Shown here: positions 1 through 5,651 of the stretch, in pieces
How the letters are laid out: the number at the start of each line of letters is the position of its first letter
How positions within the stretch are numbered: the stretch's first letter is position 1
Source: a virus
Lineage: Duplodnaviria; Heunggongvirae; Uroviricota; Caudoviricetes
Strand: one strand, 5' to 3'
Virus record (IMG/VR): IMGVR_UViG_2671180430_000009
Location: 1-5,651 of that record
Length of the DNA stretch: 5,651 nt
Made by a program: the position numbers and the translations under genes
Notes under the pieces: model-generated
Database searches by the model: none
What the model saw: the letters and a program-made list of their open reading frames with translations, nothing else
Told to the model about the DNA's origin: nothing

Positions 1-141
1 GAACAGGAGGGACAGCTGATAGAAACAGAAGCCACTGGAGCACCTCAAAAACACGATCATACACTAAATCAGTAAGTTGGCAGCATCACCTTTTGTCTCT
101 ATGTTGATATAACCGTTTGTACTTATAAACCTGGAGGCATC

Positions 142-354
142 GTGGAAAAAATAAAGAAACTATTTAGTAGTAAATACGCAGTCATACGTCGTGATGACCT
201 GTCAGTTATAGTCGAAATGGATTACTTCCCTGAAACCAAAAAATCAATGATGTATCGTAATGGTCGAAAGGCAATTTTTTTACCGATGAGGGTAAGTGAC
301 ATTATGGGAAATGATAAACTGCTGGATGAATTGCGAGTCAGAGCATCCTGTTAG
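142..354 (+). CDS. Small hypothetical phage protein (70 aa), GTG start
   Basis: ORF 142-354 starts at GTG 142 with GGAGG at 133-137 (4 nt spacing). Lys/Arg-rich 70-aa product; no family recognised. Position at the head of a co-directional phage gene block. Confidence 0.5.
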   Translation: MEKIKKLFSSKYAVIRRDDLSVIVEMDYFPETKKSMMYRNGRKAIFLPMRVSDIMGNDKLLDELRVRASC

Positions 355-425
355 TATTGGCATTAATTCTGGTATACTACATAACGGGCTGAACACCCAT
401 TCTACTGCGCCAGCGGAGAACTACG

Positions 426-1025
426 ATGGCGCATATACAACTGATCAAACAAACCTCTTCCGGATTACTTCTCCCGGCGACGCCGGAGAGTTGCGATTTT
501 CTGCATCAAATCAAAACAGGTGAGTGGATACACGCAGACTTTAAGCGTGTGCGTAACTACGCATTCCACAAGCGTTTTTTCAAACTCCTGCAACTGGGAT
601 TCGATTACTGGACTCCGGTCGGTGGGGCGATCACGCCTCGCGAACGAGAACTGCTGTCTGGTTTCGTTGATTACCTGTGCGAATCAGTAGGTCGGGAACA
701 TACGCCAGCTCTGAGCGAAGCCGCAGAGCAATATCTGAATACAGTTGCGACACGCAGAACCCGGGATACGGCATTGCTAAAGTCGTTTGAGGCTTTTCGC
801 GAGTGGGTAACCATTCAGGCTGGATTTTACACCGAACATTTTTATCCGGACGGTAGCCGCGGGCGTCGGGCAAAATCCATCGCTTTTGCGAATATGGACG
901 AAACCGAGTTTCAGCAGGTTTATAAATCTGTTCTGAATGTGCTGTGGAACTGGATTCTGTTCCGTAAATTTTCCTCTCCGGAACAAGTCGAAAATGTGGC
1001 CGCGCAGCTGCTGGAGTTTGCGTAA
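426..1025 (+). CDS. Lambdoid-prophage nin-region protein, DUF1367-like (199 aa)
   Basis: ATG 426 preceded by GGAGAA at 415-420; 199-aa ORF; stop TAA 1023-1025 overlaps the next start by 1 nt (TAATG). Family assignment is from memory of prophage proteins that precede YbcO-like genes; not verified. Confidence 0.8.
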   Translation: MAHIQLIKQTSSGLLLPATPESCDFLHQIKTGEWIHADFKRVRNYAFHKRFFKLLQLGFDYWTPVGGAITPRERELLSGFVDYLCESVGREHTPALSEAAEQYLNTVATRRTRDTALLKSFEAFREWVTIQAGFYTEHFYPDGSRGRRAKSIAFANMDETEFQQVYKSVLNVLWNWILFRKFSSPEQVENVAAQLLEFA

Positions 1026-1315
1026 TGGTGGATTTACGTAAAGCGGCGCGGGGGCAGATGTGCACCGTCAGAATTCCTGGCTACTGCAATCACGATCCGG
1101 AAACGTCTGTGCTGGCGCATTACCGACTGGCGGGAACGTGCGGAACAGCGATAAAGCCACACGATATGCAGGCAGCGATTGCCTGTAGCTCGTGCCACGA
1201 TTTAATCGACGGGCGGGTAAAAACCAGCGATTACACCAAAGAAGAATTACGCCTGATGCATGCAGAAGGTGTTTTTCGCACACAAGAAATCTGGAGAAAG
1301 GAGGGATATTTATGA
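1025..1315 (+). CDS. ybcO: YbcO-like (DUF1364) Cys/His-rich putative nuclease, 96 aa
   Basis: 96-aa product MVDLRKAARG...CTVRIPGYCNHDPETSVLAH...CSSCHD matches the length and Cys/His pattern I recall for E. coli DLP12 YbcO. Start overlaps the upstream stop (TAATG); stop TGA 1313-1315 overlaps the downstream ATG 1312 (ATGA). Confidence 0.8.
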   Translation: MVDLRKAARGQMCTVRIPGYCNHDPETSVLAHYRLAGTCGTAIKPHDMQAAIACSSCHDLIDGRVKTSDYTKEELRLMHAEGVFRTQEIWRKEGYL

Positions 1316-1866
1316 TTTACCCAACGAATACAGGAAAAAGCGGAGAACACCTTCGTCTCACCACGCTGGAAAGTGTCTGGATTCAGGGAAAACTACGTAT
1401 GTGGGGGCGCTGGTCGTATATTGGTGGCGGTAAGACGGGGAATATGTTTAACCTGATGTTGACCTCTAAAAAGCTGACAAAAACGGCAATTAACGAGGCG
1501 CTCCGGAGGATGAAAAAAGCAGGTCTGAACAAGTCTGAACTTGAGGCTTTTTTGCGGGATATGATTAACGGTAAGCAAAAGAGCTGGCTGGCGCATTGTA
1601 CTGATGCAGAGGCGTTATGTATTGATCGGGTCATAAGTGAGGTGCTGGCAGAGCATCCAGGATTGATTAGCGTCCTTCGGCAACGGTATGAGGGGCGGGG
1701 GATGACCAAACGCAAAATGGCTGAACTGCTGAATGATGCACACCCGAAATGGAGTTTAAGAACCTGTGAAAGACGCATTGAGCATTGGCTAAAGGTGGCA
1801 GAATTTATTTTGTACAAACCAATGGTTATGGCTTTTGGTATAGAGAAAAAAGTTATTGCTTTTTGA
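1312..1866 (+). CDS. Putative late-gene regulator, Q-antiterminator-like (184 aa)
   Basis: ATG 1312 with strong SD GGAGG 1299-1303 (8 nt spacing); the ORF-track start at 1192 would overlap ybcO by about 120 nt and lacks an SD. It is the last gene before a terminator and tRNA array, the position of Q in Stx-type lambdoid phages. C-terminal segment (MTKRKMAELLNDAHPKWSLRTCERRIEHWL) looks like a helix-turn-helix. No lambda-Q-type Cys zinc finger, so the Q assignment is positional. Confidence 0.6.
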   Translation: MIYPTNTGKSGEHLRLTTLESVWIQGKLRMWGRWSYIGGGKTGNMFNLMLTSKKLTKTAINEALRRMKKAGLNKSELEAFLRDMINGKQKSWLAHCTDAEALCIDRVISEVLAEHPGLISVLRQRYEGRGMTKRKMAELLNDAHPKWSLRTCERRIEHWLKVAEFILYKPMVMAFGIEKKVIAF

Positions 1867-1941
1867 CGTAAAAACTGCTTCAATTCTTGTACGCTTCGCA
1901 AAGCTGTACCGCGAGGCGAATAGCAGACATGGACATTTGAA

Positions 1942-1968
1942 AGAGCCCGCTTTATGCGGGTTTTTTTA
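1942..1968 (+). terminator. Rho-independent terminator downstream of the Q-like gene (candidate tR')
   Basis: GC stem CCCGC (1946-1950) / GCGGG (1956-1960) with 5-nt loop TTTAT, followed by T7 run 1961-1967. Confidence 0.75.
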
Positions 1969-2017
1969 TACCTGAAAAACGGCACAGGACGTTAAACGTG
2001 CTGGTGGTCAGATGAGT

Positions 2018-2046
2018 TTGCAGATGTGATGACATATGGTTATTAT
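2018..2046 (+). promoter_or_regulatory. Candidate sigma70 promoter for the tRNA array
   Basis: -35 TTGCAG (2018-2023), 17-bp spacer, -10 TATTAT (2041-2046); predicted start about 2053, 3 nt before the first tRNA. Motif match only. Confidence 0.35.
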
Positions 2047-2055
2047 TCTGCCTCC

Positions 2056-2132
2056 GGCCCTTTAGCTCAGTTGGTCAGAGCGAGCGACTCATAATCGCCA
2101 GGTCGCTGGTTCAAGTCCAGCAAGGGCCACCA
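2056..2132 (+). tRNA. ileZ: tRNA-Ile2 (anticodon CAU, lysidine type; decodes AUA), phage-borne
   Basis: Cloverleaf folded by hand: acceptor GGCCCTT/AAGGGCC, D-arm GCTC..GAGC, anticodon loop CTCATAA (CAT), T-arm GCTGG-TTCAAGT-CCAGC, discriminator A, encoded CCA. Anticodon and T arms closely match E. coli ileX as I recall it, rather than elongator tRNA-Met. Confidence 0.85.
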
Positions 2133-2133
2133 A

Positions 2134-2210
2134 CCACCACTAGCTCATCCGGATAGAGCATCAACCTTCTAAGTTGACGGTGCGAGGTTCGAGTCCTCGG
2201 TGGTGGGCCA
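2134..2210 (+). tRNA. argN: tRNA-Arg (anticodon UCU; decodes AGA/AGG), phage-borne
   Basis: Perfect 7-bp acceptor stem CCACCAC/GTGGTGG (C1-G72), D-arm GCTC..GAGC, anticodon stem TCAAC/GTTGA with loop CTTCTAA (TCT), T-arm CGAGG-TTCGAGT-CCTCG, discriminator G, encoded CCA. Same anticodon loop as E. coli argU. The argN name is by analogy with Stx phages. Confidence 0.8.
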
Positions 2211-2212
2211 GC

Positions 2213-2288
<76 letters not shown>

Positions 2289-2291
2289 TAT

Positions 2292-2366
<75 letters not shown>

Positions 2367-2371
2367 GTCAG

Positions 2372-2418
2372 AGTCTTTCAGTCTGCGATGATGGGAAATC
2401 CCGGAGTGACTGAAAGAC
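2372..2418 (+). repeat. Long hairpin directly after tRNA-Gly (11-bp perfect stem, 24-nt loop)
   Basis: GTCTTTCAGTC (2373-2383) pairs perfectly with GACTGAAAGAC (2408-2418). Begins 6 nt after the tRNA-Gly CCA and is followed by GTTTAAGTT. Possible 3' processing or termination structure for the tRNA transcript. Confidence 0.5.
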
Positions 2419-2425
2419 GTTTAAG

Positions 2426-2498
2426 TTATGAATGATCGCCTTTTTTTGCAAAATTGCTGTGCAGAAATACTAACCTTCGGGCGTGCGATCATTCATAA
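2426..2498 (+). repeat. 14-bp perfect inverted repeat with 45-bp spacer
   Basis: TTATGAATGATCGC (2426-2439) and its exact reverse complement GCGATCATTCATAA (2485-2498). Spacer contains a T7 run and the palindrome TTTTGCAAAA (2444-2453). Confidence 0.5.
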
Positions 2499-2548
2499 GC
2501 ACTCTGCTTTTATTCCGATTAACTGTGGGTGGTTTGTTGGATAGAGTG

Positions 2549-3692
2549 TGAGGTGTACTGGCAATAGCGGACACTACCATTTGTTCTTTTTTTAAGCAGC
2601 CATCTGATGATATTTTTCCCTGAAGGCTGCCGGGGAGATATTCCCCAGACGAGAGTGACGACGCTGACGATTGTAGAAAATCTCAATGTATTCCCGTATT
2701 ACTGAGATGGCTTCATCCCGGTTATTAAAACGATAGTGGCTCAGGCTCTCATTTTTCAGCGTTCCCCAGAAGCTTTCCATCGGAGCGTTGTCGTAACAGT
2801 TACCTTTACGCGACATTGATGTTTTCAGACCAGACTGCTCCTGTATGACCCGGTAATCGTATGCGCAGTACTGTGAACCTCGATCAGAGTGGTGGATTAG
2901 CCCGGCAGGTGGGCGCTGGCTCCTGAGCGCCATAAACAGGGCTTTACCTGTCAGCTCTTTTGTCATGCGCTCTCCCATGGCGTAGCCGACAATTTCGCAC
3001 GTATAAACATCTTTGATGCCAGCGAGGTACAACCATCCCTCCTGTGTGGCAACATACGTCAGGTCCGCCACCCAGACCTGATTTGGTGCTGTAGGAGCGA
3101 ACGTCTGGTTCAGCAGATTTGGCGCAACTGGCAGATTGTGGTTCGAGTTCGTAGTCGCTCTGAACTTGCGTTTCTGCTTACAGCGTAGCCTTAGCTCCTT
3201 ACGAAGACGTGCCAGTCGGTCACGACCAACGATGATGCCATTCTCTGCCAGCTCCGTCTGGAGCCGCCGGGTTCCATATGTTTCGCGAGTGCGGATATGT
3301 GCCACCTTAATCTCCAGTTTTAGCCGCTCATCACTTTGTTTTCTGTCTGAGGGTTCATGCTGTACCCAGTTGTAATAACCGCTCCTGGATACACCAAATA
3401 CCTGACACATCGCTTCAATGGGAAATTGTTGTCGCCATTGTTCGATTAACGCGTATTTTTCAGCGACTCCTGTGCAAAATACGCTGTTGCTTTTTTTAAT
3501 ATATCTCGCTCAAGGCGAGCTTCATTTAACGCCTTACGCAGTTGCAGAATTTCAGATTCCAGTTCAGCCACCGTGCGGGAACCAGGAGTACCGAGCCCTT
3601 TTCTGGCGGCGGTAACCCATTGTCCTAAAGTGCCTTCAGGAAGAGATAATCGGGAAGCGCCTTCACTGATCGAAAGTTGATTTTCAAACACA
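2549..3692 (-). mobile_element. IS600-like IS3-family element, apparently truncated or rearranged at its left (orfA) end
   Basis: + strand begins TGAGGTGTACTGG at 2549, 43 bp outside the orfB stop. orfA and orfB lie in -1 frame relation with an A7G slippery run (3491-3497 on +). Canonical orfA homology seems to stop near 3690 (see finding). The 3692 boundary is an estimate; if the element is intact its end lies near 3789-3812. Confidence 0.7.
2592..3410 (-). CDS. IS3-family transposase OrfB (IS600-like), 272 aa from first Met
   Basis: 272-aa product with the IS3-family integrase/DDE-type core (e.g. ...WVADLTYV..., ...HHSDRGSQY..., ...KGNCYDNAPMESFWGTLK...). Frame is -1 relative to orfA, so it is probably expressed as an OrfAB fusion by frameshifting. 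Confidence 0.9.
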   Translation of the reverse strand: MCQVFGVSRSGYYNWVQHEPSDRKQSDERLKLEIKVAHIRTRETYGTRRLQTELAENGIIVGRDRLARLRKELRLRCKQKRKFRATTNSNHNLPVAPNLLNQTFAPTAPNQVWVADLTYVATQEGWLYLAGIKDVYTCEIVGYAMGERMTKELTGKALFMALRSQRPPAGLIHHSDRGSQYCAYDYRVIQEQSGLKTSMSRKGNCYDNAPMESFWGTLKNESLSHYRFNNRDEAISVIREYIEIFYNRQRRHSRLGNISPAAFREKYHQMAA

Positions 3693-3790
3693 ATATTGTG
3701 TGGGAATGTCTGACTCCTTACCATCTCCTGTTCTGTGATGTTGTTTTGTTGCAGTTCCAGTGCTCTTTTTTCAGCACCAGAATGGTGCAT
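3446..3790 (-). CDS. IS600-like OrfA (HTH transposition regulator) with atypical or replaced N-terminus
   Basis: Residues from ENQLSISEGASRLSLPEGTLGQWV to the C-terminus match IS600 OrfA as recalled, including the leucine-zipper-like tail and the slippery run near the 3' end. The first 35 codons of this ORF (MHHSGAEKRAL...VRSQTFPHNIVF) lack the conserved helix (..EFKAEAV..) seen in IS3-family OrfA proteins. Possible starts are ATG 3790 or ATG 3724, neither with a well-spaced SD. Confidence 0.6.
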   Translation of the reverse strand: MHHSGAEKRALELQQNNITEQEMVRSQTFPHNIVFENQLSISEGASRLSLPEGTLGQWVTAARKGLGTPGSRTVAELESEILQLRKALNEARLERDILKKATAYFAQESLKNTR

Positions 3791-4113
3791 TGTCGGTCAG
3801 GTTACGTAGTGAACCTCTGGCAGGGGACTGATGATTCATCATTCTGGTGTTGTAAATATCTCTTCGGACAACTTACAAAATATTCTAAGCAAACCCCGGG
3901 AACACACTCTTAACTGCCTTGGCTGGCGGTTTTTTGTACAGCGCTCGGTATGTGTGAGCTGGAAATCAGATTTTGCATGGACTGGAATCATGCTGTTATT
4001 TAGGGGCGAAGAACTGGCTTTTTCTTCCGCCTTCTCACCAGTAACGATTAGAAAAATAATGAAATGCCCCCCTCCGGGGAGGAGGACCGTAGAAAAAAGG
4101 ACCCGCCAGCAAA
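3790..4113 (+). repeat. Copy A of a 324-bp direct repeat (noncoding)
   Basis: 3790-4113 matches 4946-5269 with only 2 mismatches (3833 G vs A, 3836 T vs G) and no indels. The preceding CA dinucleotide is also shared. No credible ORF inside. Confidence 0.9.
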
Positions 4114-4873
<760 letters not shown>

Positions 4874-4945
4874 TGGAGCACCTGTGTTGTTCTGAGGTGA
4901 GCATATCACCTCTGTTCAGGTGGCCAAATTCAGTGTGCCACTTCA

Positions 4946-5269
4946 TTGTCGGTCAGGTTACGTAGTGAACCTCTGGCAGGGGACTGATAATGCATCATTC
5001 TGGTGTTGTAAATATCTCTTCGGACAACTTACAAAATATTCTAAGCAAACCCCGGGAACACACTCTTAACTGCCTTGGCTGGCGGTTTTTTGTACAGCGC
5101 TCGGTATGTGTGAGCTGGAAATCAGATTTTGCATGGACTGGAATCATGCTGTTATTTAGGGGCGAAGAACTGGCTTTTTCTTCCGCCTTCTCACCAGTAA
5201 CGATTAGAAAAATAATGAAATGCCCCCCTCCGGGGAGGAGGACCGTAGAAAAAAGGACCCGCCAGCAAA
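4946..5269 (+). repeat. Copy B of the 324-bp direct repeat, abutting the IS911 IRL tip
   Basis: See copy A. Starts immediately after the terminal CA of IS911 IRL (4944-4945); identity ends at 5269 (GCCAGCAAA), after which the sequence continues toward the holin gene. Confidence 0.9.
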
Positions 5270-5423
5270 AACATTGGGGATGAACAGCTTTCGCTACTCA
5301 GATTGCTGGCGGGTAAAGTTCCTCATGAATTAAGAATGCTACGCGATCTTTTTTAATGGAAATGAAAATTATTGTCAATTAGTCGTGCGTGTTTTTTCAT
5401 ACAATATTGGTAAAGGTGATTCA

Positions 5424-5455
5424 GGCCATCAGAGTTTTGCTGATGGCCTTTTTTC
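5424..5455 (+). terminator. Rho-independent terminator upstream of the holin gene
   Basis: Stem GGCCATCAG (5424-5432) / CTGATGGCC (5440-5448), 7-nt loop, then T6 run 5449-5454. Confidence 0.8.
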
Positions 5456-5489
5456 TTTCCGATAGCACAGGTCTGTCGGGGGGCGGGAT

Positions 5490-5651
5490 ATGTATCAGAT
5501 GGAAAAAATATCAACAGGCATTGCCTACGGCACCTCCGCCGGCAGTGCCGGCTACTGGTTTTTGCAGTGGTTGGATCAGGTCAGTCCATCACAGTGGGCT
5601 GCGATTGGTGTGCTGGGAAGTCTGCTTCTGGGGCTTCTGACTTATCTGACG
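5490..5651 (+). CDS. S: Class II (S21/pinholin-type) holin with dual-start motif, 5' partial (runs off window end)
   Basis: Translation from 5490: [54 protein letters not shown]..., near-identical over this span to phage 21 S holin as recalled. Two in-frame Met codons (5490 and 5499) separated by two codons give the antiholin/holin dual start. No stop before the window end, which is why it is absent from the supplied ORF track. Confidence 0.85.

Follow-up and report, generated by a model that had tools for sequence, protein, structure and literature searches.

A 5′-truncated IS600 remnant joined to phage spacer DNA, and its chimeric orfA reading frame, in a mosaic lambdoid prophage locus

The IS600 copy in the window (the whole 5,651-nt stretch of viral DNA that was analysed) has lost its first 125 nucleotides, and the DNA that now precedes it on the coding strand is the antisense strand of a lambdoid prophage spacer. 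The position of the break and the source of the replacement DNA could both be determined exactly by comparison with intact IS600 copies and intact prophages. Very probably, this is a dead, 5′-truncated IS600 in a defective lambdoid prophage riddled with insertion sequences, and the open chimeric reading frame that runs across the break is accidental. The coordinates of the features are collected in Table 1.

Table 1. Features of the IS600 remnant, the replacement DNA and the adjoining IS911 remnant, in window coordinates
Feature	Position	Strand	Basis or remark
Type A spacer flanking the IS600 IRR	2367..2548	+	100% identical to L005 3568-3749
IS600 remnant, nt 126-1264 of the 1,264-bp element	2549..3687	-	Alignment to L001 IS600
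IRR terminus of the IS600 remnant, TGAGGTGTACTGGC...	at 2549	-	Present
IS600 orfB, intact, 272 aa	2592..3410	-	ORF list; identical to full-length copies
Chimeric orfA ORF	3446..3790	-	114 aa, ATG start; ORF list
A7G slippery run, orfA/orfB -1 programmed frameshift, retained	3490..3497	-	Sequence
Junction IS600 nt 126 / phage spacer	3687..3688		Blunt, 0 bp shared; CGAAAGTTGATTTTCAA/ACACAATATTGTGTGG
Foreign 5′ extension of the chimeric ORF, 103 nt	3688..3790	-	Antisense strand of phage spacer
Type B tRNA-to-holin spacer segment, 426 bp, EIEC-type allele	3688..4113	+	Sequence comparison
IS911 remnant, nt 1-832 from the IRL: orfA and part of orfB	4114..4945	-	About 417 bp missing on the IRR side
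Second copy of spacer 3790-4113	4946..5269	+	2 differences; unbroken to holin start at about 5490

The IS600 remnant and its junction with phage DNA

The reference for alignment was a full 1,264-bp IS600 copy on plasmid pRM8352 (L001 276-1539), which has both ends and is flanked by a CCT target duplication. From window position 3687 down to 2549, the remnant is identical to this copy at 1,137 of 1,139 nucleotides (2 mismatches, 99.8%), and it is 100% identical to the copies in L008, L009 and L015. The RefSeq features under these matches are named “IS3-like element IS600 family transposase”, and the homologous coding sequence is annotated there with a programmed frameshift. Thousands of IS600 copies were retrieved when window positions 2500-3900 were searched by megablast against 5,426 complete E. 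coli genomes. All of the alignments ended at query position 214, corresponding to window position 3687, and no record extended into 3688-3900. An apparent breakpoint recurring at window position 3686 in several loci was rejected as an IS600 polymorphism (CAGGAAC versus CAAGAAC); the BLAST alignments end where the window diverges from IS600, and there is thus no shared break at 3686.

In the native element, the orfA start codon lies at nt 65 and OrfA has 100 residues. The segment lost from the window, nt 1-125, contains the left inverted repeat (IRL), the 64-nt leader with its AAGGAG Shine-Dalgarno sequence, orfA codons 1-20 (MSRKTQRYSKEFKAEAVRTV) and the first base of codon 21. In the orientation from nt 125 to 1, the absent stretch reads GAACCGTTCTGACAGC. 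No remnant of nt 1-125 was found elsewhere in the window, nor any IRL-like sequence in the whole window with up to 3 mismatches allowed. An earlier, sequence-only reading of this DNA had relied on an expected OrfA N-terminus to place the loss at about 120 bp and 21 codons. Alignment to the reference IS600 confirmed the expected N-terminus and broke off where predicted, at nt 126, with the IRL absent; the exact values are 125 bp and 20 1/3 codons. Compared with a complete IS600, the copy has the expected nucleotide identity, but not both of the terminal inverted repeats (5′-TG...CA-3′). Nor does it have a full orfA to go with orfB in the -1 frame and the slippery run, as orfA is without codons 1-20 and its Shine-Dalgarno sequence. 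There is no 3-bp target-site duplication either, with type A spacer on one flank, type B spacer on the other and no common target between them. Judged by its sequence, the element is IS600, but a remnant rather than a variant isoform. Deprived of the IRL, the leader and orfA codons 1-20, it is unable to transpose as a two-ended element, and the description of it as a non-mobile remnant in the earlier reading was correct.

A set of Shigella-like chromosomes (4.8-4.96 Mb, with many IS1, IS600 and IS911 genes) was reached through a look-up of the DUF1133 (Q-like) protein. Window positions 1-3687 are 100% identical in L008, L011 and L015, and in these records IS600 runs on to its canonical left end. 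The identical 3.7 kb span an IS1 end, the DUF1367, YbcO and DUF1133 genes, four tRNAs, 182 bp of spacer, and IS600 from the IRR to nt 126. On the strength of this identity, the window carries the same IS600 insertion event, which was afterwards truncated or recombined. Since that insertion is full length in L008, L011 and L015, the state seen in the window is a secondary loss and not a natural variant end. The same comparison bears on the idea that the copy represents a natural, still mobile IS600 isoform with a different left end, for which the open reading frame is the one argument. The IRR has no inverted repeat partner anywhere upstream, the upstream DNA is contiguous spacer in phages that carry no IS, and the orthologous copy in the sister genomes has the canonical left end. 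This reading is already refuted, and its probability is practically nil.

The junction itself was fixed by a three-way comparison of the window with L008, in which IS600 is intact, and L003, in which the spacer is. On the phage side of the junction, positions 3688-4113 are 100% identical and contiguous in nine E. coli genomes, several of which are known EIEC strains. There, the matching stretch starts 34 bp past tRNA-Gly, the last gene of an Ile/Met-Arg-Thr-Gly tRNA cluster, and heads to a lambdoid prophage’s holin gene; the stretch is free of annotated genes. A search against Rfam returned four tRNAs only and no match in the spacer. The phage collection contained nothing closely related to the spacer; its top match, in an LT-IIb prophage, had 70% identity over 170 bp. 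The unrelated DNA that had been noted in place of the IS left end is thus lambdoid prophage tRNA-to-holin spacer, in antisense. The first 34 bp of the spacer, which precede the matching stretch, end in ...TTATTTGCACTG. The segment in the window opens with a 14-bp perfect palindrome, ACACAATATTGTGT (3688-3701), the only one in the window, and the IS600 break coincides with the edge of this palindrome.

On the IS600 side, the break lies directly 3′ of GTTC in the heptamer GTTCTTG (nt 122-128), which contains both GTTC and CTTG, the preferred target tetranucleotides of IS91 (PMC13181058). Moreover, an independent truncated IS600 on EHEC O165 plasmids (P0008) starts only 3 nt away, at nt 129, directly adjoining the terIS end of IS91, ...CTCG (L018). 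The break might therefore be attributed to a site-specific event at the GTTC target (nt 122-125), such as an IS91-type insertion or a one-ended rolling-circle event, with later loss of the element. We consider such an origin very unlikely, as the window contains no IS91-family end (terIS or oriIS), no IS91-family transposase and no Y2-transposase ORF. Furthermore, the junction DNA is native spacer, the four bases with which it ends (GTGT on the IS strand) correspond to no cleavage site known for IS91, and the prior for the tetranucleotide coincidence is a few percent. Given this lack of IS91-family sequence in the window, the position of GTTC at the break was treated as a coincidence worth noting and not as a mechanism.

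The mosaic structure of the locus

The two flanks of the IS600 remnant come from different prophage types, type A on the IRR side and type B on the truncated side. The type A spacer is intact in L005, where it carries no IS and is followed by the holin gene 110 bp further on. Beyond the type B segment lies the IS911 remnant, which is 99.9-100% identical to IS911 copies in L012 and L013; the RefSeq annotation under this part reads “IS3-like element IS911 family transposase”. The join between spacer and IS911 (4113/4114) is blunt like the first, with 0 bp shared in the junction comparison, and microhomology at this join was rejected on the same grounds. At its other end, the IS911 IRL at 4945 adjoins the second copy of spacer 3790-4113, and L013 matches the IRL/spacer junction and all of the DNA rightward of it at 99.9% identity. 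Between the two spacer copies there are differences at 3833 and 3836; here the allele of copy 1 is that of EIEC and the allele of copy 2 that of L013, which disfavours a simple tandem duplication. E. coli VL7S7, which covers 93%, was considered as an intermediate and rejected, because its IS911 lies downstream of the holin gene and represents an unrelated insertion.

From these identities, the window is a mosaic of three parts: positions 1-3687 from one Shigella-like prophage, 3688-4113 from an EIEC-type type B spacer, and 4114-5651 from a second Shigella-like prophage. Both blunt joins fall inside an IS and flank the single 426-bp piece of spacer. The surroundings are those of a defective lambdoid prophage of the Shigella/EIEC type, riddled with insertion sequences, with an IS1 end, a truncated IS911 and a partly duplicated spacer. 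This context fits the expansion of IS1, IS600 and IS911, three of the five insertion sequences that have expanded across all Shigella and also occur in EIEC (PMC7373316).

A mosaic of this kind could also arise artificially, by mis-assembly or from a chimeric molecule made of pieces of three prophages (1-3687, 3688-4113 and 4114-5651). Neither the 3687/3688 junction nor the 4113/4114 junction was found in the 5,426 E. coli genomes or in the collections of viral sequences, species-representative genomes and metagenome contigs. Moreover, the best source differs for each piece (Shigella-like L008, 100%; EIEC L003, 100%; L013, 99.9%), and both joins are blunt. Assembly errors, however, join sequences at shared repeats, whereas here 0 bp are shared at either junction. 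In addition, all three pieces belong to one kind of locus (Q region, tRNAs, spacer, holin), and their orientation and order agree, as expected from recombination among co-resident prophages. Shigella genomes, the likely source, lie outside the DNA collections searched, so that the absence of the junctions from those collections is weak evidence. An artefactual join is, in our estimation, very unlikely.

As the origin of the break, we favour an illegitimate join, with recombination having taken place as well between IS copies that belong to different prophages. Homologous exchange between the IS600 copies, and between the IS911 copies, of co-resident prophages, together with two non-homologous breaks, could have assembled the present arrangement. 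The non-homologous join within IS600 would have removed nt 1-125, and with them the IRL, the leader with the ribosome-binding site, codons 1-20 and, if IS911 is a guide, the promoter. What remained of IS600 was fused to non-coding phage spacer, the antisense strand of which is by chance open for 34 codons back to an ATG, giving a chimeric frame of 114 codons. Without an IRL, the copy is unable to form the two-ended synaptic complex or the circle used by IS3-family elements, and is immobile. Should blunt breaks in IS600 and IS911 around the 426-bp piece be found to recur, a specific breakage mechanism might be involved; the present evidence does not require one.

The chimeric orfA reading frame

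The reading frame reported from sequence alone is real, and its product is the peptide quoted then. It consists of 34 phage-derived codons, one hybrid codon (TTT) and the codons for IS600 OrfA residues 22-100, with the product reading MHHSGAEKRALELQQNNITEQEMVRSQTFPHNIVF followed by ENQLSISEGASR... The 103-nt extension is 100% identical to L003 and contiguous there with 3791-4113 (L003 4001-4426 in all), and it occurs in the nine E. coli genomes. The chimera matches the Pfam profile HTH_Tnp_1 (PF01527) over profile positions 19-75 with 43.2 bits, above the gathering threshold of 24.1, while native OrfA matches over positions 2-75 with 73.6 bits. Positions 1-18 of the profile are left uncovered in the chimera, whose match begins only at position 19; the first helix is therefore missing, in agreement with the earlier reading. 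The HTH core and leucine zipper are intact, as is orfB, and all three are identical to their counterparts in active IS600 copies. The N-terminal 35 residues of the chimera belong to no Pfam family and had no homologue in a search of 5.8 billion protein clusters.

Followed in five intact phages, this antisense frame forms an ORF of 61 codons that extends into antisense tRNA-Gly sequence, and it is therefore not a real gene start. Of 2,000 shuffles of the 426-bp replacement DNA, 16% left the frame open over 34 or more codons and 7% gave it an extension of 20 or more codons starting with ATG. The open frame is thus no more than would be expected by chance and is probably accidental, with no need of a special explanation.

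No Shine-Dalgarno sequence was found at a usable distance (5-13 nt) from ATG 3790 in the preceding 60 nt. At the internal ATG 3724 (M23), AGGAG directly adjoins the start codon, without workable spacing, and the native AAGGAG-N7-ATG of IS600 orfA is absent. A consensus scan of the minus strand between 3400 and 4200 detected no sigma-70-like site. The IS911 remnant (4945 to 4114) lies upstream on the same strand, separated from the chimeric frame only by a weak hairpin with a poor T-tail (4087-4066), and read-through from the IS911 promoter could transcribe the frame. In IS911, the promoter pIRL is situated at the left end, and the N-terminal HTH, common to OrfA and OrfAB, is the specific DNA-binding domain (PMC2909936). 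By analogy, the promoter, one of the ends bound by transposase and a portion of the DNA-binding domain would be missing from the IS600 remnant. With the native expression signals and the first HTH helix missing, the chimeric OrfA and any frameshifted OrfAB are most likely either not made or not functional, although, with the HTH core, leucine zipper and orfB intact, a product might still be partly functional. The suggestion that a fusion protein could still be made is thus right as far as the open frame goes, but the native promoter region and Shine-Dalgarno sequence were lost without replacement, and the product is in none of the databases searched.

The exact products of the chimera from three alternative start codons (114, 92 and 81 aa) are not on record among 153 billion gene positions, and exact look-ups did not find the chimeric IS911 orfB′ ORF or a 199-aa plus-strand ORF either. 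A look-up of the 97-aa spacer ORF returned only short draft contigs that break at IS911. Among the 5.8 billion protein clusters, the near-identical matches (94-99% identity) align with 71-75% of the query, namely its IS600 part only; the one match that reaches a cover of 89%, P0114, represents another chimera and shares 70% identity. ORFs with a truncated or chimeric IS600 OrfA occur commonly in Shigella and E. coli; P0008, P0011, P0024, P0038, P0056 and P0076 are examples.

Another interpretation of the frame is a functional, domesticated gene, which would encode either a zipper-containing, non-DNA-binding modulator that acts on IS600 OrfAB in trans or a new regulator. The frame is open and has an ATG, nothing is missing from the HTH core, leucine zipper, slippery run or orfB, and transcription could come from the IS911 remnant on the same strand. 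Haren et al. are said to have reported in 2000 that OrfA regulates OrfAB through the zipper. Both OrfA and OrfAB of IS911 have an N-terminal HTH and leucine-zipper multimerisation domains (PMC2909936), and a derivative with only the zipper could in principle pair with OrfAB. Against this, consensus scans revealed neither a Shine-Dalgarno sequence nor a promoter, the N-terminal 35 residues have no family or homologue, and the product appears in no collection. Furthermore, the frame would be open by chance in about one case in six, and its N-terminal codons are antisense spacer, identical in phages without the fusion. We therefore hold domestication to be highly improbable. There is likewise only a very slight chance that a truncated OrfA, transcribed from the IS911 remnant, serves as a trans-dominant partner of IS600 OrfAB; such a protein would damp or alter transposition of the many intact IS600 copies of the host.

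An accidental frame in a dead IS600 is a known and common kind of IS decay that matters little outside annotation. The ORF should be annotated as an IS600 pseudogene remnant, neither as a transposase nor as a new gene. The locus provides a small worked example of how IS-rich prophages of Shigella and EIEC decay into mosaics.

Comparison with known systems

The closest known system is IS600 itself, a 1,264-bp member of the IS3 family found in Shigella, EIEC and EHEC. The remnant shares its IRR, orfB, A7G run and OrfA residues 22-100, but differs in the absence of nt 1-125 and of a target duplication, and in having flanks derived from two prophage spacer types. The other chimeric IS600 orfA ORFs (P0008, P0011, P0024, P0038, P0056 and P0076) likewise consist of the 3′ part of orfA fused in frame to unrelated upstream DNA. 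The breakpoints in P0008 and in the window are 3 nt apart (nt 129 in P0008), but the partner in P0008, where IS91 has inserted into IS600, is an IS91 end, whereas here it is phage spacer without a mobile-element end. The domain order of the chimera, an N-terminal HTH followed by a leucine zipper, is the same as in OrfA and OrfAB of IS911 (PMC2909936). The window’s own IS911 OrfA (4571-4873) has the ..SAEFKRESA.. first helix that the chimera is without. In IS911, the left end carries the promoter, whereas the chimera has lost the left end together with the first HTH_Tnp_1 helix.

Flanks of the IS600 remnant

The phage DNA that flanks the IS600 remnant belongs to a different type of tRNA-to-holin spacer on each side, and the two types are denoted A and B; their positions, with those of the other features, are listed in the table below. 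Both types are carried by a single EIEC strain, CFSAN029787. The type-B spacer, about 680 bp in length and represented in the window at 3688-4113 and 4946-5489, is without annotated gene, and no Rfam family was matched in it. Its best phage match is the LT-IIb prophage SerU, with 70% identity over 170 bp. The type-B spacer occupies the position at which converting phages have their toxin genes.

Upstream of the type-A spacer lies the tRNA cluster. The tRNA with the CAT anticodon was called as Met by ARAGORN, whereas the RefSeq annotation of relatives gives tRNA-Ile. In L013, a related chromosomal locus, an IS911 is inserted inside the first tRNA of the cluster, at window position 2126. At the left end of the window, the prophage is truncated by an IS1 end upstream of the DUF1367, YbcO and DUF1133 (Q-like) genes.

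Features of the window and of the insertions in sister genomes (window coordinates unless a locus is named)
Feature	Position	Strand	Remarks
IS1 copy end	1-90		matches IS1 ends beside InsA/InsB genes in related chromosomal loci L007-L015
Four phage tRNA genes, clustered	2056-2366		CAT, Arg-TCT, Thr-TGT, Gly-TCC
Type-A spacer	2367-2548		intact in L005; tRNA-to-holin distance about 290 bp
Type-B spacer	3688-4113		intact in L003 (EIEC genome locus); tRNA-to-holin distance about 680 bp
Imperfect inverted repeat, 31 nt	3768-3798 / 3826-3856		in type-B spacer
Terminator-like hairpins	3912-3931 (with T-run), 3975-3993, 4066-4087		in type-B spacer
Direct repeat of phage spacer, 324 bp	3790-4113 and 4946-5269		either side of IS911 remnant
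IS911 remnant, nt 1-832	4114-4945	minus	orfA and part of orfB; second truncated IS in window
IS2-sized IS3-family element, 1,331 bp	L009 10055-11385		inside IS600; 5-bp duplication
IS911	L012 10055-11303		inside IS600; 3-bp duplication

IS911 remnant and spacer repeat

The broken end of the IS911 remnant meets a 426-bp spacer piece bluntly at 4113|4114, and the IS600 remnant adjoins the same piece. The truncated orfB of IS911 runs into the phage DNA, giving a 169-aa ORF (4544..4035) that constitutes another chimeric frame. We considered a fresh tandem duplication as the source of the 324-bp repeat that flanks this remnant. The two copies differ at 3833 (G/A) and 3836 (T/G), with copy 1 carrying the allele of the EIEC locus L003 and copy 2 that of L013, and a fresh tandem duplication is therefore disfavoured. 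More probably, the repeat arose when IS911 copies in two prophages underwent exchange.

Break and insertion sites in IS600

In the sister genomes L009 and L012, the orthologous IS600 carries different IS3-family insertions at one shared spot, corresponding to window 3361-3365, which looks like an insertion hot spot.

On the phage side of the junction with IS600, the DNA starts directly with ACACAATATTGTGT (3688-3701), the sole perfect 14-bp palindrome in the window, which belongs to the native spacer sequence (L003 4001-4014). The palindrome may have promoted the break, via a hairpin or as a protein-binding site, or its location may be a coincidence. On the IS600 side, the break falls directly after GTTC in the sequence GTTCTTG (IS600 nt 122-128), the retained part of which is window 3685-3687. 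This heptanucleotide contains both preferred IS91 target tetranucleotides (PMC13181058). In EHEC O165 plasmids (L018 3040-3075), an IS91 lies within IS600, 3 nt from the position of the break in the window; the chimeric OrfA that results there (P0008) is distinct from the chimera in the window.
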